A stretch of DNA of 53,738 nucleotides from a virus, in the UHGV virus genome UHGV-0115803; one strand, written 5' to 3'. This document shows positions 1,892 to 28,550 of the stretch, one piece after another (within the stretch, counting starts at the first letter, position 1; every line of letters begins with the position of its first letter). The notes below the pieces were generated by a model. That model saw only the letters and a list, made by a program, of their open reading frames with translations. It had not been told where the DNA came from and did not search any database. The position numbers were made by a program, and so were the translations under genes.

Positions 1892-2260
1892 CTAATTAAT
1901 AAGCTCCACCTTAAATACATGGCGATATTGAGAACTGATTCGTTCTCCTGCCTCGTTTTCATCAAGAGCAAATATTTTAATGGATTCCACCGGATTTGAT
2001 TCAGTCAAAACGTTCGTAAAGAACACCTTAAACTCTTTTTCTTTTAAGAAATCTCCTTCGTCCATCATGTCACTCGCCCATGACTTATCATCATTATCAA
2101 ACTGTCCAATGAAACTATCCTCAGAATCTACCTTTGGATTGTAAGCACAATATCTGATGGGGACAATTTCCAAACAATCTTCGTGATAATATTTATATTC
2201 AACTTCCACAATATCTTCAAACTGACGAAAGGTTTTATCACAAATCGGACATTTTTTCAT
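1892..2260 (-). CDS. hypothetical Cys-containing protein (CPICDK...)
   Basis: ORF; N-terminal CxxC. Confidence 0.4.
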   Translation of the reverse strand: MKKCPICDKTFRQFEDIVEVEYKYYHEDCLEIVPIRYCAYNPKVDSEDSFIGQFDNDDKSWASDMMDEGDFLKEKEFKVFFTNVLTESNPVESIKIFALDENEAGERISSQYRHVFKVELIN

Positions 2261-2661
2261 TGTTCCACCTCCAACAACTCTTTATCCTCGTAGATGTTTC
2301 CGATTACTTCTATTGGTAAATCAACGCTATATAATAATTCGAATTCAGTATCAAGATTTTTATAGTCAAGATAGAACCCGCCTTGTACAAATCTGATTAC
2401 TGACATACCATCATTTAATACGTCTCCGATAATCTTCACTATATCCCCCTCAAATATCTCCACGCCATTCTTGTCTTTAAGGCCTGTTGACTGCATTAAT
2501 TCAATATCTTCAAAACGATACCAGTCTAAACAAGTAGTACAGGTGCTATCACCACAACCATTTATTCCTACTGGTTCATCGTCTATGCCGTTAAGAGTGA
2601 GATCATTAACTGGATAAATTTTCTTCGATTTTTTTATATAAGCTTTAAACTTCGGTATCAT
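2257..2661 (-). CDS. YopX-like phage protein
   Basis: DKNGVEIFEGDIV motif typical of the YopX family. Start moved to M27 (ATG preceded by GGAAGTGAG); the upstream part of the listed ORF overlaps a repeated intergenic element. Confidence 0.5.
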   Translation of the reverse strand: MIPKFKAYIKKSKKIYPVNDLTLNGIDDEPVGINGCGDSTCTTCLDWYRFEDIELMQSTGLKDKNGVEIFEGDIVKIIGDVLNDGMSVIRFVQGGFYLDYKNLDTEFELLYSVDLPIEVIGNIYEDKELLEVEQ

Positions 2662-2697
2662 ATTACTCACTTCCATTTCTAATTTGTTGTACAATAG

Positions 2698-2786
2698 TGA
2701 TGAGCTGGCCCCTCCTTTTTTCAATCGGGTTAAAAGCATATTTTAATCAGCTCACGACCGCTGACCAATCCCCAGCGGTCTTTTTT
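2698..2786 (+). repeat. Copy of early-region repeated element (box AAAGCATATTTTAATCAGCTCAC + hairpin GACCGCTG..CAGCGGTC + T6)
   Basis: Related to the ~901-982 and ~2965-3059 copies. Terminator stems vary with compensatory changes. Confidence 0.4.
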
Positions 2787-2952
2787 GTTACAAATTATTT
2801 ATGACTTATTTCTTCTTAACTACCGTTCGCGCTTGAAACTAAAACGGTTACTTGTTACGCTTTTGGTGTCTTTTGAGAAGACACCAATTGTGCGCAGCTA
2901 GGTTCCCCACCTAGCACTAGACTGCCGTTTCATACCGCGGTAGTCCTTTTTT

Positions 2953-3059
2953 GTGTTATAATTTAAACGAGCTAGGTTCTTCCTTGTTGATTTCATTAAT
3001 CTGAAGCATATTTCAACTAGCTCAGAGACCGCTGCCACCCAATGTTCAGCGGTCTTTTT
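2953..3059 (+). ncRNA. Plus-strand minigene: extended -10 TGtTATAAT (~2954-2962), conserved box (~3003-3025), terminator (~3027-3059)
   Basis: Same architecture as 888-982. The surrounding 2790-3100 region is densely hairpinned (GGTGTCTT..AAGACACC; GCTAGG..CCTAGC). Confidence 0.35.
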
Positions 3060-3100
3060 CTATGCAATCGCTTCGGTTACCGGAAATAACAATCACTTGA

Positions 3101-3472
3101 TCAGTGCTCAAGCCACATGCTGTCATAACTTTCAATTTCGTTATCATTTCCTACCGATTCGCCGCCCACCGTATAAAAAGTAATAGTGTCCTCTTCATAG
3201 CAATCTTCGCAATATCTTGTATGCTCATCTTGCTTAATGTAAGTATCTCCAACAGACAAATCTTTATCGCAAGATTCGCAATATAAATCGATTTCTTCTT
3301 CGCCTAAATATTTCGTATAGTAGCTAGCTCGTTGATTATCAGGAACCAGTTTAAGAGCTCTTTCTTTCGTTCTTAAGTATCTTTTTTCAATAATTCGATC
3401 ATTGAATACAGTTCCTACTACGTACTTGGTTAACTTCATTCTCACACCTACACTTTCTCGATCAAACCCCAA
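3101..3472 (-). CDS. hypothetical Cys-rich (zinc-binding?) protein
   Basis: CESCDKD...CEDC motifs. Confidence 0.4.
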   Translation of the reverse strand: MGFDRESVGVRMKLTKYVVGTVFNDRIIEKRYLRTKERALKLVPDNQRASYYTKYLGEEEIDLYCESCDKDLSVGDTYIKQDEHTRYCEDCYEEDTITFYTVGGESVGNDNEIESYDSMWLEH

Positions 3473-3651
3473 GCTTTCGCCTGAAGCTTATACCTGTACT
3501 GATTGTCTTTCAGGTAAGCCAATCTATTACTTAGTGACTTCACGCTTTCCAACATGCACCACTGTCTTGCTTGTTCAAGTTCATATTCCAATTGATCAAT
3601 CTCGTCTTGGTGATCTTGAATGATTCCCATAATGTTTTTCATGTTTAGCAT
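3448..3651 (-). CDS. hypothetical protein (67 aa)
   Basis: ORF only; overlaps neighbour. Confidence 0.3.
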   Translation of the reverse strand: MLNMKNIMGIIQDHQDEIDQLEYELEQARQWCMLESVKSLSNRLAYLKDNQYRYKLQAKAWGLIEKV

Positions 3652-3660
3652 CTCTCACAC

Positions 3661-4257
3661 CTACACTTTCTCGACTGTGCCGCCGAGATTTTTAGCCACC
3701 GAAGAAGCTGTTCCCTCATTTTTATATTTGATAATCGACTCATCTTCACCAAGCACCGTGTTCATCACAAATTGAGCAGTGGTATCTTCCCAACCACAAA
3801 AATATAAATTACCAACTTTAACCACCCACTTCGGTTCTTCCTCGACCTCGTAGCCGTCTAGCCAAGCGCGCATATATTTTTCAGGATGTTTAACAAGCCA
3901 ATCAATAGCGTTCTCATTTTCCCCAGCTTTGTCTTTCCTGCAATACCAATCTTTAAAGGTAATTAGTAATGCCAATAGGTCGACATCAGTCGAATTACGA
4001 TAATAGTCAAGTAATTCTCCAACACATTTTGGCACTTTGACTTTCTGCGGTTCTTCTAATTTGGTAAGGACACTTTTTGCTATTCCCAAACCTGCAAAGA
4101 CACCTGTGGACAATGTTTTGTTATTGGCTTCTACGCCTGTGCTTGTTGCTACATGAAAAAATTGGGTACTTGTTGTTTCAAGTTCTTCTAAAACTTCTTG
4201 TTTATTCATTTCATACCTCCTAAATTCTATGTGATCAAAAAGTTGATTAATGATCAC
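3661..4257 (-). CDS. hypothetical phage protein (DUF1642-like?)
   Basis: 198 aa; family assignment from memory only. Confidence 0.4.
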   Translation of the reverse strand: MIINQLFDHIEFRRYEMNKQEVLEELETTSTQFFHVATSTGVEANNKTLSTGVFAGLGIAKSVLTKLEEPQKVKVPKCVGELLDYYRNSTDVDLLALLITFKDWYCRKDKAGENENAIDWLVKHPEKYMRAWLDGYEVEEEPKWVVKVGNLYFCGWEDTTAQFVMNTVLGEDESIIKYKNEGTASSVAKNLGGTVEKV

Positions 4258-4438
4258 ATAGATTCTTACTTGATAGGCTGAGATTGCGGATCTTTTTTAC
4301 CGTCAGTCGTAGTTGTTTTAAACATTTTATAAATATACGTGTTATACTGATGAAGAGCTGAAGAAAACAGTCGAAGTACATCAATTCAGCTCTAAGCCAG
4401 CTGCGGAAACAGCTGGTTTTGTTCATCAATCATCGGTA

Positions 4439-4765
4439 TTGTTACGTTTTACTTACGTTTACCCACTTATTCACACTAATCTCCTTTTTGATGCTATGGT
4501 TATTAAGTACCATAAGGATGTGAAAACAATGATTAACTTTTATCCTGTACACGTTTATGTTTCTAATTATCGAATATACGCTTCCCTAGAAAAAGCGAAC
4601 TTTGATAGTTCCCATACGAAGCCTATTAAAAGTCTATTTGCTGTTTTAAACTTAAAGGAAATCAAAGCTATGAAAATGAAACTTTTCATCTATGACCTTG
4701 ACATCAATAGTTTTGATAAAATGCAAGATGCGATAAACGATTGTCAAACGCAAATGAATAATTGA
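4439..4765 (+). CDS. hypothetical protein on the opposite strand within the early region (possibly starting at MINFYPV ~4529)
   Basis: Only sizeable ORF in the 4258-4821 gap of the minus operon. Followed by a perfect plus-strand terminator. Confidence 0.35.
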   Translation: MLRFTYVYPLIHTNLLFDAMVIKYHKDVKTMINFYPVHVYVSNYRIYASLEKANFDSSHTKPIKSLFAVLNLKEIKAMKMKLFIYDLDINSFDKMQDAINDCQTQMNN

Positions 4766-4770
4766 TACTT

Positions 4771-4800
4771 ACACTGAGCTTAGTACTCAGTGTTTTTCTT
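4771..4800 (+). terminator. intrinsic terminator ACACTGAG-cttagta-CTCAGTGT + TTTTTCTT
   Basis: 8-bp perfect stem plus T-run read directly from the sequence. Confidence 0.6.
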
Positions 4801-4821
4801 TGATTGGCGTGGTTAGCAGAA

Positions 4822-5103
4822 CTAACCGCCTAATTCAAAAGTGTTTTTCATACTTGATCTAAAGGCTTTTAGCTGATTTTCTATGATAGTATCTTTTACT
4901 TCGAACCGATCTTTGATTAAAGGTGCTGCCATGTCTTTTGCATAGCTTTGCCTGATATTTACCCTTTGGTTACCGATTTGTTTTACAACATCACGGCCAT
5001 TAATAATACTTTGAATATCGGCTTCACTTAAAATGATCTCCATCATTCGCCGTCCTCCCGTAGTAAAGTTTTCTCGCAGAAACGTTGCATCTGTGCCATG
5101 CAT
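4822..5103 (-). CDS. hypothetical protein
   Basis: ORF. Confidence 0.35.
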   Translation of the reverse strand: MHGTDATFLRENFTTGGRRMMEIILSEADIQSIINGRDVVKQIGNQRVNIRQSYAKDMAAPLIKDRFEVKDTIIENQLKAFRSSMKNTFELGG

Positions 5104-5360
5104 ATAACTTTGTCAGGCATATCCAATTTTTGGAAGCTTAAAGTGTATTGAACCGTGATACCACCGTTATTCCGTTTCCAAAATTCAGCCATCGATTGAA
5201 AGTTCTGCATGATTACATATTTCTCTCCATCTAATCGCCCTATTTGAAAATCACATGTATTATTTTTACTCATAAAAACCTCCTTGATTGTTGTCGTTAG
5301 TGGACTAAATACTACCTGTTTGAAAACCATAATGTGCAGTTTCAACGCCGTCATAATCAC
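5043..5360 (-). CDS. hypothetical protein
   Basis: ORF; overlaps neighbour by 60 nt. Confidence 0.35.
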   Translation of the reverse strand: MIMTALKLHIMVFKQVVFSPLTTTIKEVFMSKNNTCDFQIGRLDGEKYVIMQNFQSMAEFWKRNNGGITVQYTLSFQKLDMPDKVICMAQMQRFCEKTLLREDGE

Positions 5361-5757
5361 TTATTTCCCACTCAGCCCCATCGGGTATATCAACGACTTT
5401 AAGACTTGCATGTGGTCCACTGGCCTCACTTCCTAGTTTTTCGACAACAGCAACGAGGTCCTTATCACCTCTGTTTGAATCACTTGAAAAACTGGAATCA
5501 TCAGCAATTCCGTACAGTCGGTCAATTTCGCTATAAATTCCTGTAACTTTGTCGATTTTCGGGTCTTTTTTGAAATAGTAGATAAAATCCATCGAACCTA
5601 GCTTTTGGCCTGTGTGTCTCGTGTATTCATCATCTGAGTCATAGCTAAAGTTATTGATGTATGGGAATACTTCAATATTTTTTCTTTTAAAAATTTCCAT
5701 TTTTGCTTCATGGCTCAACCCAAAGCCACCAAAACATTTATTTAATACAATCTTCAT
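5305..5757 (-). CDS. hypothetical protein
   Basis: ORF. Confidence 0.4.
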   Translation of the reverse strand: MKIVLNKCFGGFGLSHEAKMEIFKRKNIEVFPYINNFSYDSDDEYTRHTGQKLGSMDFIYYFKKDPKIDKVTGIYSEIDRLYGIADDSSFSSDSNRGDKDLVAVVEKLGSEASGPHASLKVVDIPDGAEWEISDYDGVETAHYGFQTGSI

Positions 5758-5782: not shown

Positions 5783-6244
5783 CTACAGTAGCTTATCTAT
5801 TACTAGATAAACAAATTTCCCTTTATAATTTTCAAGAATTTCAAGAATGTTGTGACCGCCCAATGTAAACGTTTCTGTATTAAATCCTTCAATAGTAAAA
5901 GATGAATACCCATACCAGGTTTCTTTAAATTCAAGTAATCCCATTGAGTCTAGAACGATATACTCTCGTATCTGATCTAACTTCATTCTTTTGTCTGACG
6001 CGTACAGTTCCATTGAAATGTTGTCAGCAATATATCTCCCTGAAATCCCGTTCTCATATTCATCTTCAGTGTGTAAATCGGAAAAACCTAATTTATCAAG
6101 AGCATTGCTAACTAGTACTCGTAATTGACGACCGTCGTCCGTGTCGTAATCTACAGTTTTTGAATTATTTTTAACTAAAAAAATTTCGTCTTCGTCTAAC
6201 CAATGCTCATTGACGACAACCCAGCCTTTAATAATCTGTTTCAC
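5783..6244 (-). CDS. hypothetical protein
   Basis: ORF. Confidence 0.4.
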   Translation of the reverse strand: MKQIIKGWVVVNEHWLDEDEIFLVKNNSKTVDYDTDDGRQLRVLVSNALDKLGFSDLHTEDEYENGISGRYIADNISMELYASDKRMKLDQIREYIVLDSMGLLEFKETWYGYSSFTIEGFNTETFTLGGHNILEILENYKGKFVYLVIDKLL

Positions 6245-6268: not shown

Positions 6269-6826
6269 CTATTCACTTATTAATTCCAACTGTTCTTGAG
6301 GAGACACTTCTTTACCCCAATACGGTGAAATTTTATAAAACTTTCCAACTTCTCTGTTCAACGATCTAACCATGCTTTCCATCAGCTTTGCCCTCATAGA
6401 TAGATTTACATTTTTACGCTTAGCACCAATTTGGCTACTCATATAACCCTGTTGAGTAACAAGTAAAATACCAATGCCTTTGTTCTTTATGCCCATGTCA
6501 AAAGCTTTTTTGGGGTCGTCATTAAAGAATTGATTTTTCTCGGCTTTTTTTTGCTCTTCTAATACTAGCTCTTTGTATAACTGTACTGGCATTACATAAT
6601 AGTTATAGTCGCCATAAAATGAAAGATTAGCACGGCTTTTGAAATCAGATTTACTGACTTTTATCTCATAACACCTAAATTCTCCGGTTGTTTTATAAGT
6701 AATGAAATCAACTATTTCTCGACCTTCCCAGCCGATCCCCACCTCGAAACATCCGAAAACTCCTTGTTTATTATTTTCTTTCCAAAGGGCACTTTCACAC
6801 AATTTTGTCAAATTCGTTTTCGCCAT
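6269..6826 (-). CDS. PD-(D/E)XK nuclease-fold protein (MmcB-like?)
   Basis: IVDF...YEIKVSKSD suggests a D...ExK motif. Confidence 0.4.
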   Translation of the reverse strand: MAKTNLTKLCESALWKENNKQGVFGCFEVGIGWEGREIVDFITYKTTGEFRCYEIKVSKSDFKSRANLSFYGDYNYYVMPVQLYKELVLEEQKKAEKNQFFNDDPKKAFDMGIKNKGIGILLVTQQGYMSSQIGAKRKNVNLSMRAKLMESMVRSLNREVGKFYKISPYWGKEVSPQEQLELISE

Positions 6827-6857: not shown

Positions 6858-7169
6858 TTAGCGGAGCTTTTCTAAATCAGTCGACTTCACGAAGGAGCCG
6901 TTGATCATTTCTCCTGTCCGATTCTTTATTTCGTCATATGCACAATTTACGCACTCATATAGGTTCATGTCATTCTGCATTGCTAAGATGATCAATGTCA
7001 CGACTGTATCGCCAATTCCGTCACGCAAAGAAGCGCGGTCACTACGAACGATCGCCGCAGCAACCTCGCCAAGTTCTTCCATCACTTTCAACATTTGCTT
7101 GCTAGAATCAGCAGTGTCTAATTCTTTGTCTTTAGCCCATTGCTCAATTTTTTCAATCAGTTCATTCAA
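6858..7169 (-). CDS. MazG-like nucleotide pyrophosphohydrolase
   Basis: MEELGEVAAAI...GDTVVTLIILA motifs; 103 aa. Confidence 0.55.
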   Translation of the reverse strand: MNELIEKIEQWAKDKELDTADSSKQMLKVMEELGEVAAAIVRSDRASLRDGIGDTVVTLIILAMQNDMNLYECVNCAYDEIKNRTGEMINGSFVKSTDLEKLR

Positions 7170-7184
7170 AATACTGTTCTCCTT

Positions 7185-8195
7185 TTACGCTACATATTTT
7201 TCGTGTTCTAGTTTCAAGTCTGATCCCGACGTGTCGATGTATTGAAGCGTTGTGTCCACATCTGTGTGTCCGAGAAATCGCCGCACATCGTTCAGGCTCA
7301 TTCCTCTTTTCAGTGCTAAGGTTGCGGCAGTTCTCCGAAACTTATGTGGATGAACATGCGTCACGCCAGCACGTTTTCCAATTTCTTTGACCATCTTCTG
7401 AATACCGTTGCTAGTCATAGCTGTTCCCACTCCGTGTAATCCACACAGGATAGGTCCTTCTGAATGCGGCTTTATCACAAGATAATTATCAATAGCCACT
7501 TTGGCACGCGCATTGACGAAAACAACCCGTTCCTTGTTGCCTTTTCCGATCACAGTGATGGTTCCCCGTTGCTGATCATAGTTTTCCATCGTCAACATAG
7601 TCAGCTCTGTAACTCGGCAGCCTGTCGATAACAAGAGTTCGAATGTTGCTTTCTCTTTCGGCTTCCGACAAGCATTTCGCATCAGTTCTACTTCGACTGG
7701 CGTAAAGGCTTTTTTTAGTCGTTTTTCGACTTTGATCTTCTCAACCCTTCGTCCGGGATCCCTGCTAATGTATTCTTCTTCAAAGAGCCATTTAAAGAAT
7801 CGACAGATTGCACCGCGTTCTCTATCTAAAGTTGCTGATGATAGATGATCATTCATTTCTCTATTCGCAATGTAAAGACGTATATCATTCGTGGTCACAT
7901 CGTTAAATGATACTCGTACCCATCGATTAAATTTATCTATCGTTCGCATCGCCAGATTGATCGTTCCAGGCGAAAGACCGCGGAGTTTCATACTCACAAA
8001 ATATTGCTTGTATGCGGCAATGTCAGAAGTTTCATCGTAGATGATCACATCTCGACATTCTTCTTCGAGTCGTAATTTTTCTAGGTTGATTGTTAAAACA
8101 ATTTTCAGTTTTCTAAGTTGCTTTGCTTCAAGTTCGGGCTCCATATTCCTGACAACAGCATTAATAAATTGCTCTTTCAATTCCATGATTACCAC
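7185..8195 (-). CDS. XerC/XerD-like tyrosine recombinase (second recombinase of the element)
   Basis: 336 aa. C-terminal HPHKFRRTAATLALKRGMSLNDVRRFLGHTDVDTTLQYI (R..H..R..Y catalytic region). Sits among the early genes. Confidence 0.8.
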   Translation of the reverse strand: MVIMELKEQFINAVVRNMEPELEAKQLRKLKIVLTINLEKLRLEEECRDVIIYDETSDIAAYKQYFVSMKLRGLSPGTINLAMRTIDKFNRWVRVSFNDVTTNDIRLYIANREMNDHLSSATLDRERGAICRFFKWLFEEEYISRDPGRRVEKIKVEKRLKKAFTPVEVELMRNACRKPKEKATFELLLSTGCRVTELTMLTMENYDQQRGTITVIGKGNKERVVFVNARAKVAIDNYLVIKPHSEGPILCGLHGVGTAMTSNGIQKMVKEIGKRAGVTHVHPHKFRRTAATLALKRGMSLNDVRRFLGHTDVDTTLQYIDTSGSDLKLEHEKYVA

Positions 8196-15297: not shown

Positions 15298-16194
15298 ATG
15301 GAGACGGTGTTTACCCTTGTTTTTATTATAGGTTGTATTGGAGCTTGGTATTTCATAAAAAGGAGTCCGAATAAACGTAACAGAAATATCTCTTTTGGGT
15401 TGATAACCTTATCAGTAATAATAATTGGTTTCATTCCAACAACCGAGACTAAAGAAGTGACTTCTAAACCTGTAGAAGAAAAGAAAACCAAACAACAGAG
15501 TAGTGCCAAAATTTCAGATTTAGTTTTAGAGACACCTAAAGAAGCAATCTCTGATGATACCGGAGAAGTTAAAATATCAGGAAAAACTTCGCCAAATGCG
15601 GAAGTATCAATTGGAATGGGAATAGTTGGAGATAAAACAACAGCTGATAAATCTGGCGATTTCATGCTTCTTTATGAATTAAGCAGTCCAGAAACAACTC
15701 TTACAATAAATTCAAAACGTGACGGAGATTCAAAAAGCACTAAGATAAAAGTAAAAATGAATGACAATGCACTCTCAGCATTAGAGGAAAAAGAAGCTGA
15801 AGAATCAAGAAAAGCTGAGTCAAAAAACTTGGAAAAGCAAAAGAGCGAAGAAAGCAAAGAAGCTGAACAAAAAAGAACTGAAGATAGTAAAAATGCTGAA
15901 AACCAAAAAAATAGTGATATCACACAACTCGCGGACGAAGCAACACCGCAACAATCGGATATCCTTACTGAATTGGCATTACAACAATTTGACAAATCAT
16001 ACCCTTATAAAGGAAGTAAACTTCATATTGCTATCGGTAAATTGCAAGATTGGACTCAAAAGGATGGAAAATGGTTTGCTAAATACGAGGCAACAATAGT
16101 AAATGCGTTTGATGCAAAAAGAAGTGCTAATGTTGAAGTAACTATAGAACCTGTATCCGAATCCAGCGGTTATGTTTCGTTCCTTGATTATTAA
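15298..16194 (+). CDS. membrane-anchored K/E-rich surface protein (moron)
   Basis: Two N-terminal TM helices followed by a long charged extracellular region. Confidence 0.45.
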   Translation: METVFTLVFIIGCIGAWYFIKRSPNKRNRNISFGLITLSVIIIGFIPTTETKEVTSKPVEEKKTKQQSSAKISDLVLETPKEAISDDTGEVKISGKTSPNAEVSIGMGIVGDKTTADKSGDFMLLYELSSPETTLTINSKRDGDSKSTKIKVKMNDNALSALEEKEAEESRKAESKNLEKQKSEESKEAEQKRTEDSKNAENQKNSDITQLADEATPQQSDILTELALQQFDKSYPYKGSKLHIAIGKLQDWTQKDGKWFAKYEATIVNAFDAKRSANVEVTIEPVSESSGYVSFLDY

Positions 16195-16217
16195 AATAAT
16201 TTGTTGGAGGTGGTCAT

Positions 16218-16772
16218 ATGGTTGATTGGAAGGAATTAGGGAAAAAAACTTTCGATGTCACTAAGAATGTGACCGAAAAAAGTGTTGACTCTTTTCAGGA
16301 GTGGAAAGACGATCCAAAGCGAATTGCTAAAGTTGAAAAGAAAAAGGCTACAAAAAAAGCACGGAAAGAAATTGAGAAGGCTGAAAAAAGAAAGTCAAAA
16401 ACGAAAGACACTTATCACTCTGATTCAAAAAAGACAAATTCAACTATTTTAATCAAACATGCAGGGAAAACTGAGATCAGCCTGACGGATAAAGCAATAA
16501 CAATAAAGAAAACTGGCGGACTTGATATCCATAAAGGTACAAATATAATTCCATTTAGTAGAATTACTTCTATTCAACTAAGACCTGCTACAAATTTTTA
16601 CGCAGGATATATACACTTTAGTATCCCTGGTAGTTATCCTCCAAAAAATGGACTCACTGATGCAGCAGCTGATGTTAACTCTGTTCTGTTTTCAAAAAAA
16701 TATAATGGGCAAATGGAAGAATTAAAATCCATAGTCGAAAAAATAATTTTGAAAGATGAACTGGAGGATTAA
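16218..16772 (+). CDS. hypothetical protein with a bacterial PH-like C-terminal segment
   Basis: K-rich N-terminus; ISLTDKAITIKK...IPFSRITSIQLRP. Confidence 0.4.
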   Translation: MVDWKELGKKTFDVTKNVTEKSVDSFQEWKDDPKRIAKVEKKKATKKARKEIEKAEKRKSKTKDTYHSDSKKTNSTILIKHAGKTEISLTDKAITIKKTGGLDIHKGTNIIPFSRITSIQLRPATNFYAGYIHFSIPGSYPPKNGLTDAAADVNSVLFSKKYNGQMEELKSIVEKIILKDELED

Positions 16773-16773
16773 A

Positions 16774-17832
16774 ATGAAAAAACTTACGATCGCATTAATA
16801 CTCTGCTCTACCCTGCTCTTCTCAGCCTGTTCGAGCAATAAAAAGGCTGATACGACTGATTCGACAAGAACTAAACTTGCAACAACTAGTAGCAATGAGA
16901 AGATAAACAAAGTTACTTTCAATGATGGAGTCTTGGAAACTAAAGTTTACAAATTGAAAGTTGTTACTTCTGAAGTTATTCAGAGTCCATCCGTTTCTAA
17001 CCCAGGGCTTTATGTAACTTTTGAACTGATTAATAAATCCAAGAAGAATATTGTCCCTTACCAAGTTCTTCATGATATATCATTTAAGCAAAAAACAGAT
17101 ACTTCACTTGTTAATATGACCGCTGAATATCATAGCTCTGATGCATTCGGCGAGGATGTCGAAACGGTCAATAAAATCAACAAGCGTAGTAATGATCAAA
17201 ATAATGAATTGCTACCTGGTAAGAGTATCGAAGTATTCGAAGGCTATTCATTAGAGGATAATATTCACGAAGTTCAAATGTTGCCTGATTTTGATAACCG
17301 TAAACAAAGTGAGTTTAAACCCTATATTATCAAGCTAATCGGAAATACAGATTCCGATGCCGAAGGTTCATCATCCTCACCTACAAATCAGAGCGCATCA
17401 CAAGAAGAAACATATGAACAGTTGAAGCAACGAACACTAAAATCAACACCAACTGACCGCGTGAACTGGTCCAACAAAGAATGGGAAGCATTCGGAATGG
17501 CTTTAAGCGAAAATGGATTAGCTATGGATGATAATGGATATGTCATCACTCAAGCTCAAAAAAATCAAGTTGAGGCTGAAAGACAAAAATCAGAGCAAGT
17601 AACTGAATCCCAAGGTGGCCACGGAGCACCAAAGGTTGTCACATCAGAAGCACAAGCAGTTCAGATAGCACAGAGTCAATTCGGTGATAATAACGGAGCA
17701 TGGACTTGGGGTTGTATGTATGAGGACGAACGTGGCTATTTTGTGAAAGCCACTGATCCCAACGATGGTACTATGACACACACTGCAAAGAGTGTTTTCG
17801 TACACTATGATGGTTCTGTTACGGAAAACTAG
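16774..17832 (+). CDS. lipoprotein (DUF4352-like)
   Basis: Start moved to MKKLTIALILCSTLLFSAC (lipobox LFSAC) after GGAGGA. Confidence 0.55.
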   Translation: MKKLTIALILCSTLLFSACSSNKKADTTDSTRTKLATTSSNEKINKVTFNDGVLETKVYKLKVVTSEVIQSPSVSNPGLYVTFELINKSKKNIVPYQVLHDISFKQKTDTSLVNMTAEYHSSDAFGEDVETVNKINKRSNDQNNELLPGKSIEVFEGYSLEDNIHEVQMLPDFDNRKQSEFKPYIIKLIGNTDSDAEGSSSSPTNQSASQEETYEQLKQRTLKSTPTDRVNWSNKEWEAFGMALSENGLAMDDNGYVITQAQKNQVEAERQKSEQVTESQGGHGAPKVVTSEAQAVQIAQSQFGDNNGAWTWGCMYEDERGYFVKATDPNDGTMTHTAKSVFVHYDGSVTEN

Positions 17833-17933
17833 TTTTCAATATCTTATATGTCTTGACTTATTCTATATAACTGGCGACTATCGCTACCTGCCATAAGTGG
17901 GAGTAAAATTTGAATTTATTGGAGGAAAAGAAA

Positions 17934-18560
17934 GTGAAAAAGGTATTATTAGCTTCTATTGTTATTATCTCAATGTTAGGGTTAGTTGGTTGTAGTGGAG
18001 AATCAGATTCTAGTAGTGAAGTACAGGTTAGCAAAGCGTCAACATCTATCACTGATAGTTCAACAAAAAAGAAAGAAAAATCTACTGAGGCCGCTGTTGG
18101 CAAACGATCTAATCCAGTTCCACTTGACTCTACCGCAACTTTCGATACCACTTATTACAGTGAAGATAGTGAAGATATACCCGCAAATATTTCAATGACT
18201 ATCTCAAATGTTATTCGGGGTGATGAAGCAATGAACTACTTAACTAATGCAAACGAGTTCAATGAAGCTGCTCCTGAAGGAAAAGAATGGTTATTGTTTG
18301 ATGTGACTATGAAAATGAATAAGGGTAGCCAAGATGACGCATATTACGTAACCCCTTCATTCATTCCAATAAGCTCCACTGGTGAAGAAGTGTCTCAGGA
18401 TACCTATGGAACTTTAGCAGATGGAGAAGAATTTGGGAATAAAGACCTATATGAAGGAGGAACTCAAACTGGGAAAGTCGCTTTATTAGTGCCGACTGGC
18501 GACGATACTTTGGTTGAATTCCAAGATTTTAATACTGGAGTATTCTTTAAATTACAATAA
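17934..18560 (+). CDS. lipoprotein (DUF4352-like)
   Basis: GTG start after GGAGGA. Signal VKKVLLASIVIISMLGLVGC (lipobox LVGC). Confidence 0.5.
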   Translation: MKKVLLASIVIISMLGLVGCSGESDSSSEVQVSKASTSITDSSTKKKEKSTEAAVGKRSNPVPLDSTATFDTTYYSEDSEDIPANISMTISNVIRGDEAMNYLTNANEFNEAAPEGKEWLLFDVTMKMNKGSQDDAYYVTPSFIPISSTGEEVSQDTYGTLADGEEFGNKDLYEGGTQTGKVALLVPTGDDTLVEFQDFNTGVFFKLQ

Positions 18561-18570
18561 TATAAAGATC

Positions 18571-18590
18571 AGCCCTCGGGCTTCTTCCCC
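18571..18590 (+). terminator. intrinsic terminator AGCC-tcg-GGCT + TCTT
   Basis: Hairpin after the lipoprotein gene. Confidence 0.4.
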
Positions 18591-18625
18591 ACCTGGCGCC
18601 GCCGGTTCGATTCCGGCTTGGGGAA
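18585..18625 (+). other. tRNA-3'-half-like fragment / minihelix (TCCCCA..GCCGG-TTCGATT-CCGGC-TTGGGGA-A)
   Basis: Perfect T-arm (GCCGG/CCGGC with GTTCGATT loop) plus a 7-nt acceptor-like strand that pairs with an upstream TCCCCA. No D arm or anticodon arm. Confidence 0.4.
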
Positions 18626-18653
18626 TAAAAAACAAATTTTTTGGGAGGTAAAT

Positions 18654-19514
18654 ATGTCGAACGCATCTGAAGATCCAAAAATAATATCTTTCATTAATAT
18701 GAAAGGCGGTGTTGGTAAAACAACTCTTTGTAAGGAAGTTGGATATCACTTAGCAAAAATCAGAAAGAAAAGAGTTTTATTGATTGATACCGATCCACAA
18801 GCTAATTTAACTCAATCATTTTTTAAAAAGTTTCATTTAAAACAACCTGGTTCAATGTTAGAAGGTGAAGACTCTTTTGAAGAATCTTCAGCAAGTATCA
18901 ATAATCTCTTCAAGAGTGATGGTATAGACCCTTCAAAAAAACTAGTAATAAGAAATCTAGATGAACAATTATCAATTATCCCTGGTGATCTAAATACTGT
19001 TTTTATGTCTAGAAATACTGATTCCTCAACTATGAATCAGTCTATTTACAATTTTCTTTTTATGAATTCTAGTTTTGAAAAATCTGAATACGATTATATT
19101 TTGCTGGATTGTCCACCGACATACTCTGAATACACAATCTCTGCCATCTTAGCTAGTACACATTACATCATTCCAGTTAAACCTGACAATTATTCAGTTC
19201 TTGGAATACAGATGCTAGAAAAAGTGATTCAGGATATAAAGAAGAAAAATCCTATTTACTTTAAAGAAAAACCAATAAAGAATATTGGTATAATTTTTAC
19301 GGATTTGCCCCTAAGGGTTGCAACTGGACAGGCAGAAACGATAAAATTGATCAAAGAAACTAAAAAACTGGAACCTTTTTACTTTTTCCAATCACATTTT
19401 TTAAAAAATAATGGCTTTTTCAAAAAGCTTGATTACTTTGTTGACGCCAGAAACAGTGAAAAGTCAAAGGAAAATCTTTATGCATTAGTTTCTGAATTAA
19501 TAGGGAGGTTATAA
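18654..19514 (+). CDS. ParA/MinD-family deviant Walker-A ATPase
   Basis: NMKGGVGKTT, DTDPQANLT and ILLDCPP motifs. Start at the ATG after GGGAGG (the listed ORF begins at an upstream TTG). Confidence 0.7.
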   Translation: MSNASEDPKIISFINMKGGVGKTTLCKEVGYHLAKIRKKRVLLIDTDPQANLTQSFFKKFHLKQPGSMLEGEDSFEESSASINNLFKSDGIDPSKKLVIRNLDEQLSIIPGDLNTVFMSRNTDSSTMNQSIYNFLFMNSSFEKSEYDYILLDCPPTYSEYTISAILASTHYIIPVKPDNYSVLGIQMLEKVIQDIKKKNPIYFKEKPIKNIGIIFTDLPLRVATGQAETIKLIKETKKLEPFYFFQSHFLKNNGFFKKLDYFVDARNSEKSKENLYALVSELIGRL

Positions 19515-19515
19515 A

Positions 19516-19908
19516 ATGCAACCCAATACTCAGTTAGAAGTTTACTTATCAAAGATTAACAAACGTACTCCAATTGAAGAAATGAAATTTACTCTTTATG
19601 GTTGTGCCACAATTTTCTTTTTATCAAAGCAATTGTTTCCACTCAATAAAGATATACAGATTTTTATCAATAGTTTTAAACTCAATCCAGTAGAAAAAAA
19701 TTATGGTGATTATCTTTACAAAAGCAGAACCTTGCTTTTATCTAGGATAATTCGTGATATTAAAGTTTCAGAAGTAGAAAGATTGACATTATATATTAAT
19801 GCAATGAAAGCATTAGTATTCTCTGATAGTTATAATTATAAAGAAACAACTGATAAGGATACAAAGAAGAATTACTTCGATGAACTATTTAATCAATTTG
19901 GAGGATAG
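19516..19908 (+). CDS. hypothetical protein (130 aa), translationally coupled to the ParA-like gene
   Basis: ORF; very AT-rich. Confidence 0.4.
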   Translation: MQPNTQLEVYLSKINKRTPIEEMKFTLYGCATIFFLSKQLFPLNKDIQIFINSFKLNPVEKNYGDYLYKSRTLLLSRIIRDIKVSEVERLTLYINAMKALVFSDSYNYKETTDKDTKKNYFDELFNQFGG

Positions 19909-19909
19909 T

Positions 19910-20563
19910 ATGAAAATAGATAATGAAAAATACATGAACTATTTAAATTTCGTAAATTCAAACTATCCAAACTCTGATTGGGGGGATTCAAAAAAAGAGA
20001 AAACTATTTACATGAACATTTCAAATTCTCTTTCTTGCTTAGATATCTACACTTCCGTAAATCATAAAAAATGTATTCATTCGGATCTTTTAGATGACCT
20101 AATAGTTTTGCTCCGACATTATCTTTTTTTATTACCCCTTAAGAATCCTATTTCTTATCATGCGATTATGCGAGCAATTTGTGAAACAATAATGAAAATT
20201 ATGTACTCATCTATATATCCAAACGAAACTTCCGAGTCTATACGAAAACTAAATTATAGATATTTAAGTGAGACTATTGACTCCGACGTAACCCTAAAAA
20301 GCATCGTTGGTGAAAATACTTTAAAAATTAAAAACAGTTATGCAAGTTCTTCAAATCAAATACATTCAAAAACTGGATTCAGTCAATTCAATGCTCCTTA
20401 CCTTGCAAATTTTTGGAGTTCTTCATTTTTATCAATAGATACAATGAAAAATGATTCTTCAACTATTTATGAGTTTATTTCTAAGAGTATTTATGTTTTG
20501 AATAAGTATGATTCAAATGATTTCGGTCATAATCAAAAAAATATACTACTAAACATGATATAG
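19910..20563 (+). CDS. hypothetical protein (217 aa)
   Basis: Start at MKIDNEKY after GGAGGA; N/S/Y-rich. Confidence 0.4.
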   Translation: MKIDNEKYMNYLNFVNSNYPNSDWGDSKKEKTIYMNISNSLSCLDIYTSVNHKKCIHSDLLDDLIVLLRHYLFLLPLKNPISYHAIMRAICETIMKIMYSSIYPNETSESIRKLNYRYLSETIDSDVTLKSIVGENTLKIKNSYASSSNQIHSKTGFSQFNAPYLANFWSSSFLSIDTMKNDSSTIYEFISKSIYVLNKYDSNDFGHNQKNILLNMI

Positions 20564-20570
20564 AATCTTA

Positions 20571-20590
20571 AGCCTCCGGGCTTTTCTTTT
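20571..20590 (+). terminator. intrinsic terminator AGCC-tccg-GGCT + TTTTCTTTT
   Basis: Read directly from the sequence. Confidence 0.5.
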
Positions 20591-20721: not shown

Positions 20722-21000
20722 ATGTCACCATATGAATTGAGAGAAAGACTAAAAAAAGAGGTACCAGAAGTAAAGATATACCCTATCCTTACAAAGTTTA
20801 GTTACAGTGAGGAAGAATATCAAGAAGAATTGAAAAATCAACTAGATTTAAAAAAAGATATTGAAGCTGGAAATGTGATTTCACGCCCTGTTTATACCTG
20901 GCAAGAGAAAGAACTAAAAATGGATAAGTTTTATGAAAAAGGATGGTATAAACCAAAGTTCTATACGCTTCCAAAATCTATGTTCAGGAGTGAAGACTGA
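20722..21000 (+). CDS. small protein overlapping the integrase start (Xis/accessory candidate)
   Basis: ATG after AAAGGAAA; stop overlaps the int ATG (TGATGG). Confidence 0.4.
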   Translation: MSPYELRERLKKEVPEVKIYPILTKFSYSEEEYQEELKNQLDLKKDIEAGNVISRPVYTWQEKELKMDKFYEKGWYKPKFYTLPKSMFRSED

Positions 21001-22217
21001 TGGCTTCAATAAAACCGTATAATTTAAAAAATGGTGAGCTGCGCTACGAAGTATTTATTTCTAACGGAGTGGACCCTGGTACCAAACGTCAAAATAAAAT
21101 TCATAAGAAAGGCTTCAGATCTTGGGATGAAGCAGATACTTTCGCAAAGATTACCGAAGGAGAAATCGCTAAAGGAAACTATAAAAAAGATGATGTAAAG
21201 CATTTGACAATTGAGCACTTTCTAAAGACGTGGATCACTGATTACAAATTAAGTGTTAAGGAAGGTACTAGAATTGTTCATCGGGACAATATTCGGATGT
21301 ATATAAACCCTTATATTGGAAAACATCGTTTAACTACCTACTCTCGTGCGGATCATCAGAAGTTCATTAATATGCTATTCACACTTAATGGAAAAGGCAG
21401 AAGTAAGAAAGGCTTATCTTTTAATACTGTTAAATTAGTAAACGCCACTCTTTCGAATGCTTATAAAAAAGCGATACAGCTTGGATATGTAAGTGAAAAC
21501 CCAACAGACTTTGTGGAATTTCCCTTACCGCCGAAAAAAGAGAAGATTCCTCCCCACTATACCGCAAGCGAAGTGGATTTATTTTACGAAGCAGCTAAGA
21601 AAGAAAAAGAACCATTTTGGTATCCGTTCTTCTTGTTAATCTTTGATTGTGGATTAAGAAAAGCAGAAGTGATGGCATTAAGATGGTCAGATTTTAATTT
21701 CGAAAAGAATTTTGTTGATGTGCAGCGAGAAAGACTCTATCGTGCTGAAGTTAAAGAAAACAAAGATGCGATCATAATTGATGACACAAAGACTCCAGCT
21801 GGCGAACGTGATCAACCAATCACACAAAGAACAAAATTTGCTCTACTCGAATTCTATAAATATTTTTATGATCTTATAGGAGTTACACCCTTACAGAAAA
21901 ATAATTCTGATTATGTGTTTATCTATACCTCAAGCAGCTCAAAGGGCAAAATAGTTCGAAATCGTTCAGTGAACGGCGCTTCTGTACGAATAGCGCGTAA
22001 AGCGGGCTTATCTCCCATCAAGGTACATGATGGCCGACACACCTATGCCATCCGCATGAGACAGGCTGGCGTTGATTTGGACGATATAAAAGACCTCCTT
22101 GGGCATAAAGATATATCTACAACTCAAATTTATGCTTCTGTGACTCCTGAAGTGAAGGAACGATCGGTGAAAAAATTCGAGGAATATTTAGAAGCGCAAA
22201 AGAAAAAGCACTCGTAA
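21000..22217 (+). CDS. int: phage tyrosine integrase
   Basis: 405 aa; C-terminal HDGRHTYAIRMRQAGVDLDDIKDLLGHKDISTTQIYASV. Confidence 0.85.
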   Translation: MASIKPYNLKNGELRYEVFISNGVDPGTKRQNKIHKKGFRSWDEADTFAKITEGEIAKGNYKKDDVKHLTIEHFLKTWITDYKLSVKEGTRIVHRDNIRMYINPYIGKHRLTTYSRADHQKFINMLFTLNGKGRSKKGLSFNTVKLVNATLSNAYKKAIQLGYVSENPTDFVEFPLPPKKEKIPPHYTASEVDLFYEAAKKEKEPFWYPFFLLIFDCGLRKAEVMALRWSDFNFEKNFVDVQRERLYRAEVKENKDAIIIDDTKTPAGERDQPITQRTKFALLEFYKYFYDLIGVTPLQKNNSDYVFIYTSSSSKGKIVRNRSVNGASVRIARKAGLSPIKVHDGRHTYAIRMRQAGVDLDDIKDLLGHKDISTTQIYASVTPEVKERSVKKFEEYLEAQKKKHS

Positions 22218-22231: not shown

Positions 22232-22524
22232 AAGTTCACTATCACCTTTTCTATCACCAAAAAAGGAATGACGCAAACATGTTTCTATCACCAGTTAGTT
22301 TTCAACTAGCCAGAAACATTGATTTATAGACGATTATTCAATTCTTTTGCTAAATCTTCAAATCCTGGTTTTCCAAGTAGGGCAAACATATTTTTCTTAT
22401 TGGTTATACCTTATTCCCTAATTTTCTCGATGATTGATTGGCTTAATATCAACGTTTCCACTGGATAAGTACCCTTCCTAGATTGTACCAATTTTACATT
22501 CACTATCACCAGTACTATCACCAG
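22232..22524. repeat. attP-like region: five direct repeats of (C)TATCACC(AG) in two clusters (~22236, 22250, 22284 | ~22499, 22514) flanking a ~200-bp presumptive core
   Basis: Integrase arm-type site architecture on both sides of a core, directly downstream of int. Confidence 0.45.
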
Positions 22525-23531: not shown

Positions 23532-24883
23532 ATGGATAGCGTTAATTTTAAATACGAGTTAGAACCCTCACGGGATTATGCTTTCATTGATATGAAGTCT
23601 TTTATGCAAGCTGCGAGTTAGTGTCTCGCGGATTACATCCGCTGCGTGATTTGTTGATCGTCATGAGCACGGCTGACAACACGTCGGGCTTAATACTAGC
23701 AAGCAGCCCAATGGCAAAAAAGGTCTTAGGAGTTCGCAACGTAGCGCGAAAATGGGATCTCCCTACCGAAGCGGAGAATCCTCGCGTCAGAGACTTGATC
23801 GTAGCACCGCCAAGGATGCGATATTACATTCAAGAAAATCTGAAAATCCAAAATGTTGTGCGCAAATATGCTGCTGACGAAGACATTATGTGGTACAGCA
23901 TCGACGAAGGCGTAGTCGATTTGACTGCCTCTCTTAACTATTTTGTACCTGATAAAAACCTAAGTCGTGCGCAAAAACTGGATATCGTTTCGCAGCGCAT
24001 CCAGCAAGATATTCTACGAGCAACTGGTATTTTTTCGACAGTCGGTATGTCAAACAGCAATCCCCTGCTCGCAAAATTGGCACTTGATAACGAAGCAAAA
24101 CACAATCACAATATGCGCGCATTGTGGAACTACGAAGACGTACCGACAAAAGTCTGGTCCATTCCTGAAATAGATGATTTTTGGGGAATCGGAAGTCGTA
24201 TGAAACGTAATTTGGAATTTATGAACATTAAGTCTATAAAAGATTTGGCGCATGCATCCCCCGAACGATTACATAAGAAATTCGGGATTATAGGACTTCA
24301 GTTGTTCCATCATGCGAACGGTATTGATCGATCTAAGTTACAAAAACCCTATGTTCCGAAAGGAAAGAACATTGGGAACAGTCAGGTGTTACCGCGTGAT
24401 TATGCCGGTTTTGAAATGCCTCTTCTTATAAGAGAAATGGCTGAACAAGTAGCCATTCGATTGCGTCGTAGAGGAGCACAAACGACAACCGTTCATTTAT
24501 TTATTGGCTACAGCAAAGATGAAGGAAAGCGTGGATTCGGACGTCAAATGAAAGTTCCCGCTACGAATGATACAAAGCAGTTAGCTGAGCATTTATTATT
24601 TTTATTCAACAAATTTTATGATGGTCGCGGGTTTATTCGACACATTGGTGTCACCTACTCTGATTTAGTATATGACGGTGGTGATCAGTTAAACCTTTTT
24701 GAAGATCCAACTGATCAAGAAAAAAGAATCAAAATCGATCAAGTAACAGATAAAATTCGTGAGAAATATGGTTTTGTGAGCATCGTTCGCGCAAGTTCAA
24801 CTTTGGAGAACGGTCGCAGCATAAAACGGGCTGGACTTGTGGGTGGTCATAATGGCGGCGCTGGTGGTTTAGATGGGTTATAA
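23532..24883 (+). pseudogene. Y-family DNA polymerase (UmuC/UvrX-like) interrupted by a 1-nt frameshift in a T-run (~23597-23601)
   Basis: Frame A encodes MDSVNFKYELEPSRDYAFIDMKSF..stop. Frame B continues FYASCELVSRGLHPLRDLLIVMS...SIDEGVVDLT (canonical SFYASCE motif). One extra T would fuse the two frames. Confidence 0.7.
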
Positions 24884-25309: not shown

Positions 25310-25611
25310 CTCTCAACACGGATGATTTAGAATTTGATTACCACACCGAGAATTCTGAAAAATTCACTAAGGACTTTTTGAACTATGTAATTACTGATGT
25401 TCCTCTGTTTGCCTTGCAAGATGAGTTTTTATATCTGATGAATAGACGTAAATTGACCTATTTCAAAATTCCTGGTTATAAATGCGTAGATGGTCAAGAC
25501 CATATTTTTTATTTTACTCTAAGGCATATAGAAGAAAATCCACGAATCAAAGTTTATCGATATCTTGGAATTGACCTAGAAAAGCACGGATTAATGAAAA
25601 GGAGTGAGTAG
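25291..25611 (+). CDS. hypothetical protein (106 aa)
   Basis: ORF. Confidence 0.4.
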   Translation: MESAFLTLNTDDLEFDYHTENSEKFTKDFLNYVITDVPLFALQDEFLYLMNRRKLTYFKIPGYKCVDGQDHIFYFTLRHIEENPRIKVYRYLGIDLEKHGLMKRSE

Positions 25612-25612
25612 C

Positions 25613-26203
25613 ATGTGTGGACGATATTTATTTGATCCAATGACTGGCGAATTGGATGAATACTGGCAGATTATCGCTGACGTAGCCAAGAAGCAAGAAA
25701 AGTATAAAGAGCAGGAAATTGCAACTGGCGAAGTATTCCCTTCTAACAACGTTTTGACTCTAGGTGCTAATAAAAATAATGAGGTTGTACCAGGGATTAC
25801 TAAATGGGGATTTGAGGGCTTCAAAAAAGGACAGCTCTTCATCAATGCCCGTGCCGAATCAGTTGAGGAAAAGAAAACCTTTAGCAAGCATTTCCGTGAA
25901 CGTCGCATTGTCTTTCCGATGAACGGCTTCTACGAATGGGATTCTGACAAAAAGAAATTTCTCTTCACTGGCAATAACGAAGTTATTTACGTTGCCGGCT
26001 TTTATCGCATTCATGAGAATGTTGCAGAATCAATTATTATGACCACTGAACCGAATGCTGCAGTCTCCCCCATTCATGATCGCATGCCCTTAATCATTGA
26101 AAAAAGCGATATAGATAAATGGGTTCTTGATTTAGATTTTGCTAGAGAATACCTAAAGCGTGATATGGATAAATTCGAAAACTTAAAAATTAAATCTGCA
26201 TAA
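25613..26203 (+). CDS. SRAP/YedK (HMCES) family abasic-site processing protein
   Basis: True N-terminus is MCGRY (Cys2 nucleophile), with INARAE, GFYEW and IHDRMP motifs. The listed ORF starts 9 nt too early. Confidence 0.8.
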   Translation: MCGRYLFDPMTGELDEYWQIIADVAKKQEKYKEQEIATGEVFPSNNVLTLGANKNNEVVPGITKWGFEGFKKGQLFINARAESVEEKKTFSKHFRERRIVFPMNGFYEWDSDKKKFLFTGNNEVIYVAGFYRIHENVAESIIMTTEPNAAVSPIHDRMPLIIEKSDIDKWVLDLDFAREYLKRDMDKFENLKIKSA

Positions 26204-27212: not shown

Positions 27213-27330
27213 TCTTTAGTATATAATGTTAAGGTTACATATGCAATAGAAAAAACAGCTTAGTTTAGAGGTCTTTACTATAACTATTTAACTTAAAATC
27301 AGTTTTCTAGATTACATTTAGTTTTTTTAT

Positions 27331-27401
27331 GTACCCCGCAGGCCTCGAACCCGCATCTTCCGATATGAACCGGAGTATTCTACCAATTGAACTAAGGGTA
27401 C
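27331..27401 (-). tRNA. tRNA-like gene (CAT anticodon candidate) with a non-canonical anticodon arm
   Basis: Acceptor GTACCCT/GGGGTAC, D-arm GTTC-AATTGGTA-GAAT, T-arm GCGGG-TTCGAGG-CCTGC. The anticodon arm folds only as a 5-bp stem with a 6-nt loop, or a 4-bp stem with an 8-nt loop. Confidence 0.55.
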
Positions 27402-28506: not shown

Positions 28507-28550
28507 TAACTCCCTTTGTTATTTTGCAAAGGGAGTTCTTTCTTTTATTT
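28507..28550 (+). terminator. intrinsic terminator AACTCCCTTTG-ttattttg-CAAAGGGAGTT + T-rich tail
   Basis: 11-bp stem read directly from the sequence. Confidence 0.5.

Follow-up and report, generated by a model that had tools for sequence, protein, structure and literature searches.

What is a partition-type ATPase doing among the lysogeny genes of a temperate phage? UHGV virus genome UHGV-0115803, a stretch of 53,738 nucleotides (hereafter the window), carries at positions 18654-20563 a compact cassette of three genes, the first of which encodes a ParA-like ATPase. A preliminary description made from the letters alone had left two readings side by side: a partition module that would suit a phage-plasmid, or an uncharacterised ParA-containing exclusion or defence system. 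The explanation that we favour, with moderate confidence, is that the cassette is a self-contained and horizontally mobile conflict module carried as prophage cargo, most likely for abortive infection or superinfection defence or, equivalently, as a toxin-type module.

A coupled operon led by a ParA/MinD-class ATPase

The cassette lies on the + strand and consists of the ParA gene (gene 1, 18654-19514, 286 amino acids), gene 2 (19516-19908, 130 amino acids) and gene 3 (19910-20563, 217 amino acids), whose products are, respectively, a predicted switch or sensor subunit, a predicted ParA partner or adaptor and a predicted nuclease effector. The translational coupling noted in the preliminary description is borne out: a single nucleotide separates each stop codon from the next start (TAA-A-ATG and TAG-T-ATG), and the GGAGG-type ribosome-binding sites of genes 2 and 3 are located inside the preceding gene. 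The ATG of the ParA gene is preceded by GGGAGG; a longer version of this gene, starting from a TTG at 18618, was discarded because homologues give it no support. The AT-richness of the cassette was likewise correctly perceived. Its GC content is 28.7%, compared to 37.5% for the window (standard deviation 2.5% for 1.9-kb windows), and among 1.9-kb stretches of the window GC is at its lowest here (rank 2 of 1037 windows, the minimum beginning at 18651).

The product of gene 1 is a deviant-Walker-A ATPase of the ParA/MinD (SIMIBI) class, as was first proposed, both by its motifs and by profile matches above threshold. It contains KGGVGKTT at residues 17-24, DTDPQ at 45-49 (motif A') and LLDCPP at 150-155 (Walker B), and it matches the Pfam families AAA_31 (E=1e-34, 120.5 bits against a cut-off of 27) and CbiA (3e-16, 59.8 bits against 25.4). 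The nearest solved structures are those of Soj/ParA/delta. In eight cassette ParAs, which are 33-76% identical to one another, the Walker A, A' and B motifs are invariant. This shows that ATP binding and hydrolysis are under selection.

Context largely refutes a role in partition

An ATPase of this class raises the possibility of ordinary type I partition, in which ParA and a centromere-binding gene 2 or gene 3 product would segregate an extrachromosomal phage, that is, a phage-plasmid. ParA is indeed a bona fide ParA/Soj-class enzyme with intact motifs, and it matches phrog_164, 'ParA-like partition protein', with E=3e-45. Small co-translated proteins follow it, as in type Ib systems; ParA-like genes are found in some enterococcal phages, for example EF62phi; and the window encodes a second, XerD-like recombinase at 7185-8195. 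However, the context already largely refutes this reading. The preliminary description had named ParB/ParG-type binders with an adjacent parS array as the signature of ordinary partition, and none was found for genes 2 and 3. Neither in the operon nor beside it is there a parS or iteron-like repeat array: the only repeats are chance AT-rich matches in two copies, and no intergenic multi-copy family is present. The products of genes 2 and 3 show no helix-turn-helix (HTH), ribbon-helix-helix (RHH) or ParB/ParG likeness, by sequence or by fold. ParA itself scores far under the cut-off of every NCBIfam partition equivalog (ParA_partition 74 bits, cut-off 180; RepA 66, cut-off 348; PrgP 58, cut-off 400), and its identity to the ParA of EF62phi is 34% over 65% of the protein.

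Plasmid records tell the same story as the motifs. Gene 3 matches 0 of 72,556 such records, and the one plasmid-record match of gene 2 is a 2.1-Mb Fusobacterium chromosome that is filed as a plasmid in PLSDB. The replication module of the phage is of phage type (YqaJ/RecT/DnaD-like), with no plasmid Rep, and the closest homologues of the cassette belong to integrated prophages bordered by host genes. Partition would also make no sense for the chromosomal islets of Streptococcus suis and Fusobacterium described below. The XerD-type recombinase, which had been taken to fit a phage-plasmid lifestyle, is on its own no evidence for one. The cassette and the type Ib systems (ParF-ParG, delta-omega, ParA-ParB), along with EF62phi ParA, have in common a deviant-Walker-A ParA followed by small co-translated proteins, but the cassette has no centromere repeat, RHH/HTH partner or plasmid context. 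We consider partition a very improbable function of this locus.

The three genes travel as one unit

The same arrangement, a ParA followed by proteins of ~110-160 and ~215-250 amino acids in genes that overlap or are spaced by 1 nucleotide, was found at 13 independent loci besides the window, and the order ParA, gene 2, gene 3 is the same at every locus inspected. The hosts are prophages of Enterococcus, Streptococcus, Lactococcus, Staphylococcus and Bacillaceae; bare islets occur in the chromosomes of S. suis and Fusobacterium. The prophage copies occupy four hotspots: the interval between repressor/ImmA and int, the position beside int, the position after holin/lysin, and the position upstream of terS. 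The first of these contains the cassettes of the window, of a metagenome prophage (L001, between cI and ImmA/int), of Enterococcus faecalis (L014; LexA-type repressor, then the cassette, int and host genes), of Enterococcus dongliensis (L016; cI-ImmA-DUF5067, cassette, int, host genes) and of Streptococcus phage Javan1 (L018, MK448665; repressor, cassette, int), in which the 113-residue gene 2 homologue at 4414-4755 is unannotated in GenBank. On an IMG/VR contig (L003) the cassette lies beside int, at the contig end. It follows holin/amidase genes on a Logan assembly contig (L002) and in Staphylococcus saprophyticus (L012), and is found just upstream of terS in Enterococcus faecium (L007-9). 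In Lactococcus garvieae phage PLg-TB25 (L019, KX833905), where all three genes are annotated 'hypothetical protein', it spans 3489-5486, close to the right end of the genome and probably following the lysis genes. A short contig (L005) carries a further three-gene cassette.

Two kinds of locus lie outside prophages. In the S. suis chromosome (L010/11), the three genes form a bare islet between housekeeping genes, and in the chromosome of Fusobacterium vincentii (L020, NZ_CP084075) they occupy 2144-4028 between an ispA-like gene and uppS. The latter copy is complete, which places the module outside Bacillota as well. At one of the S. suis loci (L010, 7321-8967), the frame of the gene 3 homologue, which was not called by the gene caller, meets no stop codon ahead of glyQ and continues into the glycyl-tRNA synthetase alpha gene. 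This run-on may reflect decay of the effector or an unusual overlap.

The closest copies, with 85-95% amino acid identity, are those of prophages integrated in the chromosomes of E. faecalis and E. dongliensis, where int is immediately followed by host genes. These two prophages have the cassette in common but not the neighbouring genes. The E. faecalis copy, at 95% amino acid identity, is accompanied by a different integrase and a different repressor type, from which we conclude that the cassette moves as a unit. GenBank phages contained no near-identical cassette DNA, and tblastn searches of phages with genes 2 and 3 returned nothing at E<=0.01; the divergent copies came later, via ParA matches.

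The proposal that the integrase-proximal slot is a hotspot for cargo and defence genes agrees with published work, which records exclusion genes between int and the repressor in enterococcal and lactococcal prophages (PMC6356687).

Gene 3 is predicted to adopt a HEPN-like fold

The preliminary description had suggested structural modelling and a structure-similarity search for the two unknown proteins. For gene 3, an AlphaFold2 model built from a 54-sequence alignment (predicted local distance difference test score (pLDDT) 91.8, predicted template-modelling score 0.91) is all-alpha and soluble, and the best of its specific fold matches are to HEPN domains. An Ex3[KR] motif lies upstream in many HEPN families (PMC3710099), and the acidic residue of this motif is present in gene 3. 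Across the gene 3 family (n=54), Arg88, Ser148 and His152 are found in 54/54 sequences, as is Glu or Asp at position 92, and Lys or Arg occupies position 96 in 52/54. The same pattern, R-x3-[ED]-x3-[KR] followed ~60 residues on by [SC]-x3-H, recurs at 11/11 extra loci, and all 13 loci examined have both motifs. The spacing R88-x3-E92...H152 has the same layout as the catalytic triad of the anticodon nuclease PrrC, Arg320-x3-Glu324...His356 (PMC1484252); sequence similarity between gene 3 and PrrC/RloC was not detected. On the strength of the model and of these residues, gene 3 is predicted to have a HEPN-like fold and to act as a nuclease effector with a putative metal-independent RNase site.

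Close homologues of gene 3 number only 9. When 1.84 billion representative proteins were searched exhaustively with a profile, 49 family representatives at 50% identity emerged, all 215-250 amino acids in length. A sequence search of the PDB with the gene 3 profile gave no meaningful match, and a scan of viral contigs for gene 3 gave none. Gene 3 evolves faster than genes 1 and 2, and its profile misses several copies among the extra loci.

Several observations weigh against a conflict module with a HEPN effector. The canonical HEPN motif Rx4-6H is not found in gene 3, there being no arginine 5-7 positions before the invariant His152. When curated HEPN profiles were applied to 50 family members, one matched HEPN_STY4199 weakly (E=0.01) and no other HEPN model matched; no defence or HEPN model in Pfam, PADLOC or NCBIfam fits gene 2 or gene 3 consistently. 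The family is small, as the 49 representatives attest, and no cassette was seen within a classical defence island beside known systems. Prophage cargo, moreover, may also consist of addiction modules or lysogeny-regulation genes. As to the missing arginine, some HEPN families do without the Arg of the canonical Rx4-6H, its place probably being taken by a different conserved basic residue (PMC3710099).

The idea of an exclusion or defence system gains circumstantial support from the four cargo hotspots and the HEPN-like predicted fold, without a match to any PADLOC model. The earlier statement that the products of genes 2 and 3 lack recognisable motifs is right as far as Pfam, NCBIfam and PADLOC go, but gene 2 matches phrog_6264 and both genes belong to conserved families.

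Some of this evidence would equally suit an addiction or toxin-antitoxin module that stabilises the prophage or islet and has no anti-phage role, gene 3 being a toxin restrained by ParA and/or gene 2. ParA/Soj-HEPN dyads have been predicted to be toxin modules (PMC3710099), the operon is tight, a fast-evolving gene 3 is combined with conserved genes 1 and 2, the chromosomal islets are isolated, and the gene 3 frame that runs into glyQ in S. suis may reflect decay of a toxin. Against this, the cassette appears repeatedly in prophage slots known for exclusion or defence genes, and there is no sign of post-segregational killing. Because many toxin-antitoxin modules are defence systems, the two readings are inseparable by sequence alone; a module devoted to stabilisation and devoid of any anti-phage role seems to us rather unlikely.

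Gene 2 is a predicted partner of the ATPase

Gene 2 matches phrog_6264 (1e-11) and has 34 homologues, in Enterococcus, S. suis, S. saprophyticus, Priestia, Peribacillus and Metabacillus, all of them annotated as hypothetical. The predicted model (pLDDT 81) features a bundle of five to six helices (residues 3-101), a disordered Lys-rich linker and a terminal helix. A near-invariant motif, Y-x3-S-R-T-L-L-x-[SA]-R, maps to helix 4. A profile of the family recognises gene 2 of 11/11 extra loci (E = 7e-12 to 1e-43), and we predict that its product is a ParA partner or adaptor. Neither gene 2 nor its family gave a consistent match in PADLOC, Pfam or NCBIfam, and no middle-component (MC) family of ABC-3C systems matched gene 2. 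A match of the L001 protein to DUF5891 (E=3e-4) was set aside, as it was not repeated in 27 family members. A scan of genome contigs with the gene 2 alignment, using patterns that were too narrow, gave no match.

Comparison with known systems

The closest precedent of the cassette is the dyad of ParA/Soj and a HEPN protein of the MAE_18760 family, which Anantharaman et al. predicted in 2013 to be a toxin-antitoxin module (PMC3710099). Both are compact mobile operons in which the gene for a ParA/Soj-class ATPase directly precedes that for a HEPN-type protein, and in both the proposed role of the ATPase is control of an RNase toxin. Compared by description, the cassette differs in its third gene, which inserts a small helical protein between ATPase and effector. 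It also differs in that gene 3 has no Rx4-6H motif and no consistent Pfam HEPN match; the 2013 dyads are themselves only predictions, and our literature search found no later paper that followed them up.

Two further systems can be viewed, by analogy, as functional counterparts. PrrC and RloC resemble the mechanism proposed for the cassette in having a latent anti-phage RNase of the HEPN class under the control of an NTPase. Their NTPase is of the ABC/Rad50 type and fused to the nuclease, whereas the ParA of the cassette is a separate protein with an extra partner; PrrC is embedded in a type I restriction-modification locus, and the cassette has no such linkage. RemAIN of the Salmonella prophage Gifsy-1 is described as comprising the RemA ATPase, the RemI immunity protein and the RemN HEPN anticodon nuclease (PMC13043305). 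By that summary it resembles the cassette as a prophage unit of three genes, encoding an ATPase, a small protein and a HEPN nuclease, and it shields the lysogen; the host phylum is different. The LT2 Gifsy-1 record contains no annotated ATPase.

Lamassu and other ABC-3C systems share with the cassette the logic of an ATPase, a small helical 'middle component' and an effector. The cassette ATPase, in contrast, is of the ParA class rather than SMC/ABC, gene 2 has no MC match, and CTD11 was seen in 1/50 gene 3 members, the protein of the window. We took that match as noise: at E=0.043 it falls short of the cut-off, and it is absent from the 49 other members. Tha of Staphylococcus aureus phages and HepS of Gifsy-1 are HEPN-type effectors located in prophage accessory slots that protect the lysogen by RNA cleavage. 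They are single-gene systems with a canonical Rx4-6H and sense phage tail proteins, whereas the effector of the cassette is non-canonical and invariably accompanied by an ATPase and a partner.

The components of the cassette and their linkage are not present in PADLOC v2, Pfam or NCBIfam. The sole PADLOC-DB v2 match of ParA was to PDC-M28B, through the P-loop alone (20 bits), and the PADLOC check that had been recommended yielded no consistent system match; the cassette is therefore not a catalogued system. A full-text literature search found no paper describing these three genes together and no report of a ParA/MinD-class ATPase acting in defence. An NTPase that gates a HEPN nuclease on a mobile element is nevertheless a known logic, and the pairing of ParA with HEPN had already been predicted.

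A proposed mechanism

If the cassette is a conflict module, ParA would serve as its nucleotide-dependent switch. The gene 2 product would act as its partner or adaptor; the Lys-rich tail and the C-terminal helix of this protein are reminiscent of the peptides by which other ParA partners contact their ATPase. Gene 3 would supply a divergent HEPN-like effector, in which the invariant Arg, Glu/Asp, Ser/Cys and His could form the metal-independent RNase site. In a lysogen, read-through from the repressor-side lysogeny operon would express all three genes, and a ParA-adaptor-effector complex would keep the effector inactive. Infection by another phage would then alter the state of ParA, so that the effector is freed or activated, cuts RNA and brings translation to a stop.

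A bolder version of this scheme is that the cassette represents a new anti-phage class, made up of a ParA/MinD-type sensor or switch, a non-canonical Arg-Glu-His HEPN RNase and, coupling the two, a small death-fold-like (CARD-like) adaptor encoded by gene 2. Such a locus would be a bacterial ATPase-adaptor-executioner arrangement with parts unlike those of Lamassu, PrrC and NLR-type systems. We regard this version as unlikely.

Genomic setting and edges of the cassette

The window is a temperate siphovirus genome of Enterococcus type. Its left-end early genes and right-end terS are contiguous only if the molecule is circular, which indicates circular permutation and a probably complete phage genome without host flanks. 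On the - strand, the late genes extend from terS, at the right end, as far as a lysin at 28545, and the early genes from 13659 to 396; the early set includes YqaJ, RecT, a DnaD-like initiator and the XerD-like recombinase. The latter is a second tyrosine recombinase (Phage_integrase with SAM_4/SAM_1), encoded at 7185-8195 beside DUF1064 and the DnaD-like initiator. Another early gene on the - strand, at 5783-6244, shows a sub-threshold Pfam match to Tad6, an inhibitor of type I Thoeris (E=3.7e-4; 21 bits against a cut-off of 27), and by this similarity its product is a possible anti-defence protein.

The lysogeny block occupies the + strand, and its gene order puts the cassette in the repressor-to-integrase interval: a cI-like HTH protein (14317), ImmA (14781), four membrane or lipoprotein genes (15298-18560), the cassette, an open reading frame that matches phrog_2240 (20722-21000) and int (21000-22217). 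The cassette had been placed between the tRNA-like fragment and the integrase; it does lie in the int-side slot, but the phrog_2240 frame intervenes. The four consecutive membrane/lipoprotein genes between ImmA and the cassette include, as the last three, DUF4429, DUF5067 and DUF4352, and two of the four products have lipoprotein-type signal peptides. The ImmA-side interval is a classical place, and membrane and lipoprotein genes are a classical type, for superinfection exclusion.

This setting bears on a different explanation, namely that the module serves the phage itself by acting on the host nucleoid, cell division or phage DNA (in lysogeny establishment, DNA positioning or interference with a competitor's ParA), with a non-catalytic gene 3. 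All characterised ParA/MinD ATPases are, to our knowledge, positioning machines, and this general property speaks for such a role. The cassette also shares its orientation with the repressor-ImmA-int operon and seems to lack a promoter; no convincing one was seen at 18560-18654. HEPN-like domains, furthermore, can be non-catalytic binding domains (PMC3710099). On the other hand, the prophage position varies (after lysis genes, before terS, beside int), the cassette also resides in non-prophage islets, and the strictly invariant R/E/S/H set points to a catalytic gene 3. Phages that are otherwise alike have the cassette only sporadically, which marks it as dispensable cargo. A phage-serving function of this kind is in our estimation unlikely, and we retain the conflict module as the better account.

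The claim that the cassette is bounded by terminators is accurate for its 3' edge. There, a terminator scan called a hairpin with a T-rich tail on the + strand (20570-20590, hairpin 20570-20583; AAGCCTCCGGGCTT followed by TTCTTTT), which closes the cassette. At the 5' edge, a short G+C hairpin (AGCC-CTCG-GGCT, 18571-18582, + strand) follows the upstream lipoprotein gene and is weakly terminator-like, but it has no proper T-run and was not called by the scan; its counterpart is present in the E. faecalis prophage L014.

The tRNA-like fragment that had been noted upstream of the ParA gene was also seen (18587-18624, + strand). It consists of an acceptor-like CCCCA/TGGGG stem and a T-arm, GCCGG-TTCGATT-CCGGC, with the loop GGTTCGATTCC, but it is probably not the boundary of the current att site. 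ARAGORN and Rfam made no call on it, and its fold is no better than that of shuffled sequences (z = -1.2). The remnant is kept upstream of ParA in the two closest relatives, L014 (~7075-7115), where a 1-nucleotide deletion and wobble pairs show that it is decaying, and L016 (~6680-6720); none is found at any of the more distant cassette loci. It is probably a hitch-hiking relic outside the system, and may record the ancestry of this cassette subfamily beside a tRNA gene or an old att site. We rejected it as an attP or a functional RNA, given its restriction to the two closest loci and the presence of arm-type repeats downstream of int. Those repeats comprise five copies of CTATCACCA, partly arranged as TTCACTATCACC, at 22236-22523, just downstream of int; their resemblance to arm-type integrase sites suggests that attP probably lies there rather than at the tRNA-like remnant.

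The accessory region between int/attP and the lysin contains a tRNA gene at 27330-27401 on the - strand (Rfam, 38.6 bits), to which ARAGORN assigns no anticodon. Further cargo between attP and the lysis module includes a gene for a UmuC/ImpB-type Y-family polymerase (23621-24883), which may be N-terminally short, as the match begins at profile position 18, and a gene for an SOS-response-associated peptidase (SRAP, 25604-26203).

Implications

The label 'ParA-like partition protein' in prophages of this kind is no sign of a phage-plasmid, and our analysis corrects a tempting misannotation. At 1.9 kb, the cassette is compact, self-contained and easily cloned and mutated. Its presence in the clinically relevant E. 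faecalis, E. faecium and S. suis and in Staphylococcus prophages means that it could affect the host range of phages used in therapy. If the cassette protects lysogens, it would give an experimental footing to the ParA/Soj-HEPN association, which has rested on prediction since 2013, and the ParA class would join the few NTPases known to gate HEPN nucleases, next to the ABC domain in PrrC/RloC and paraMORC.

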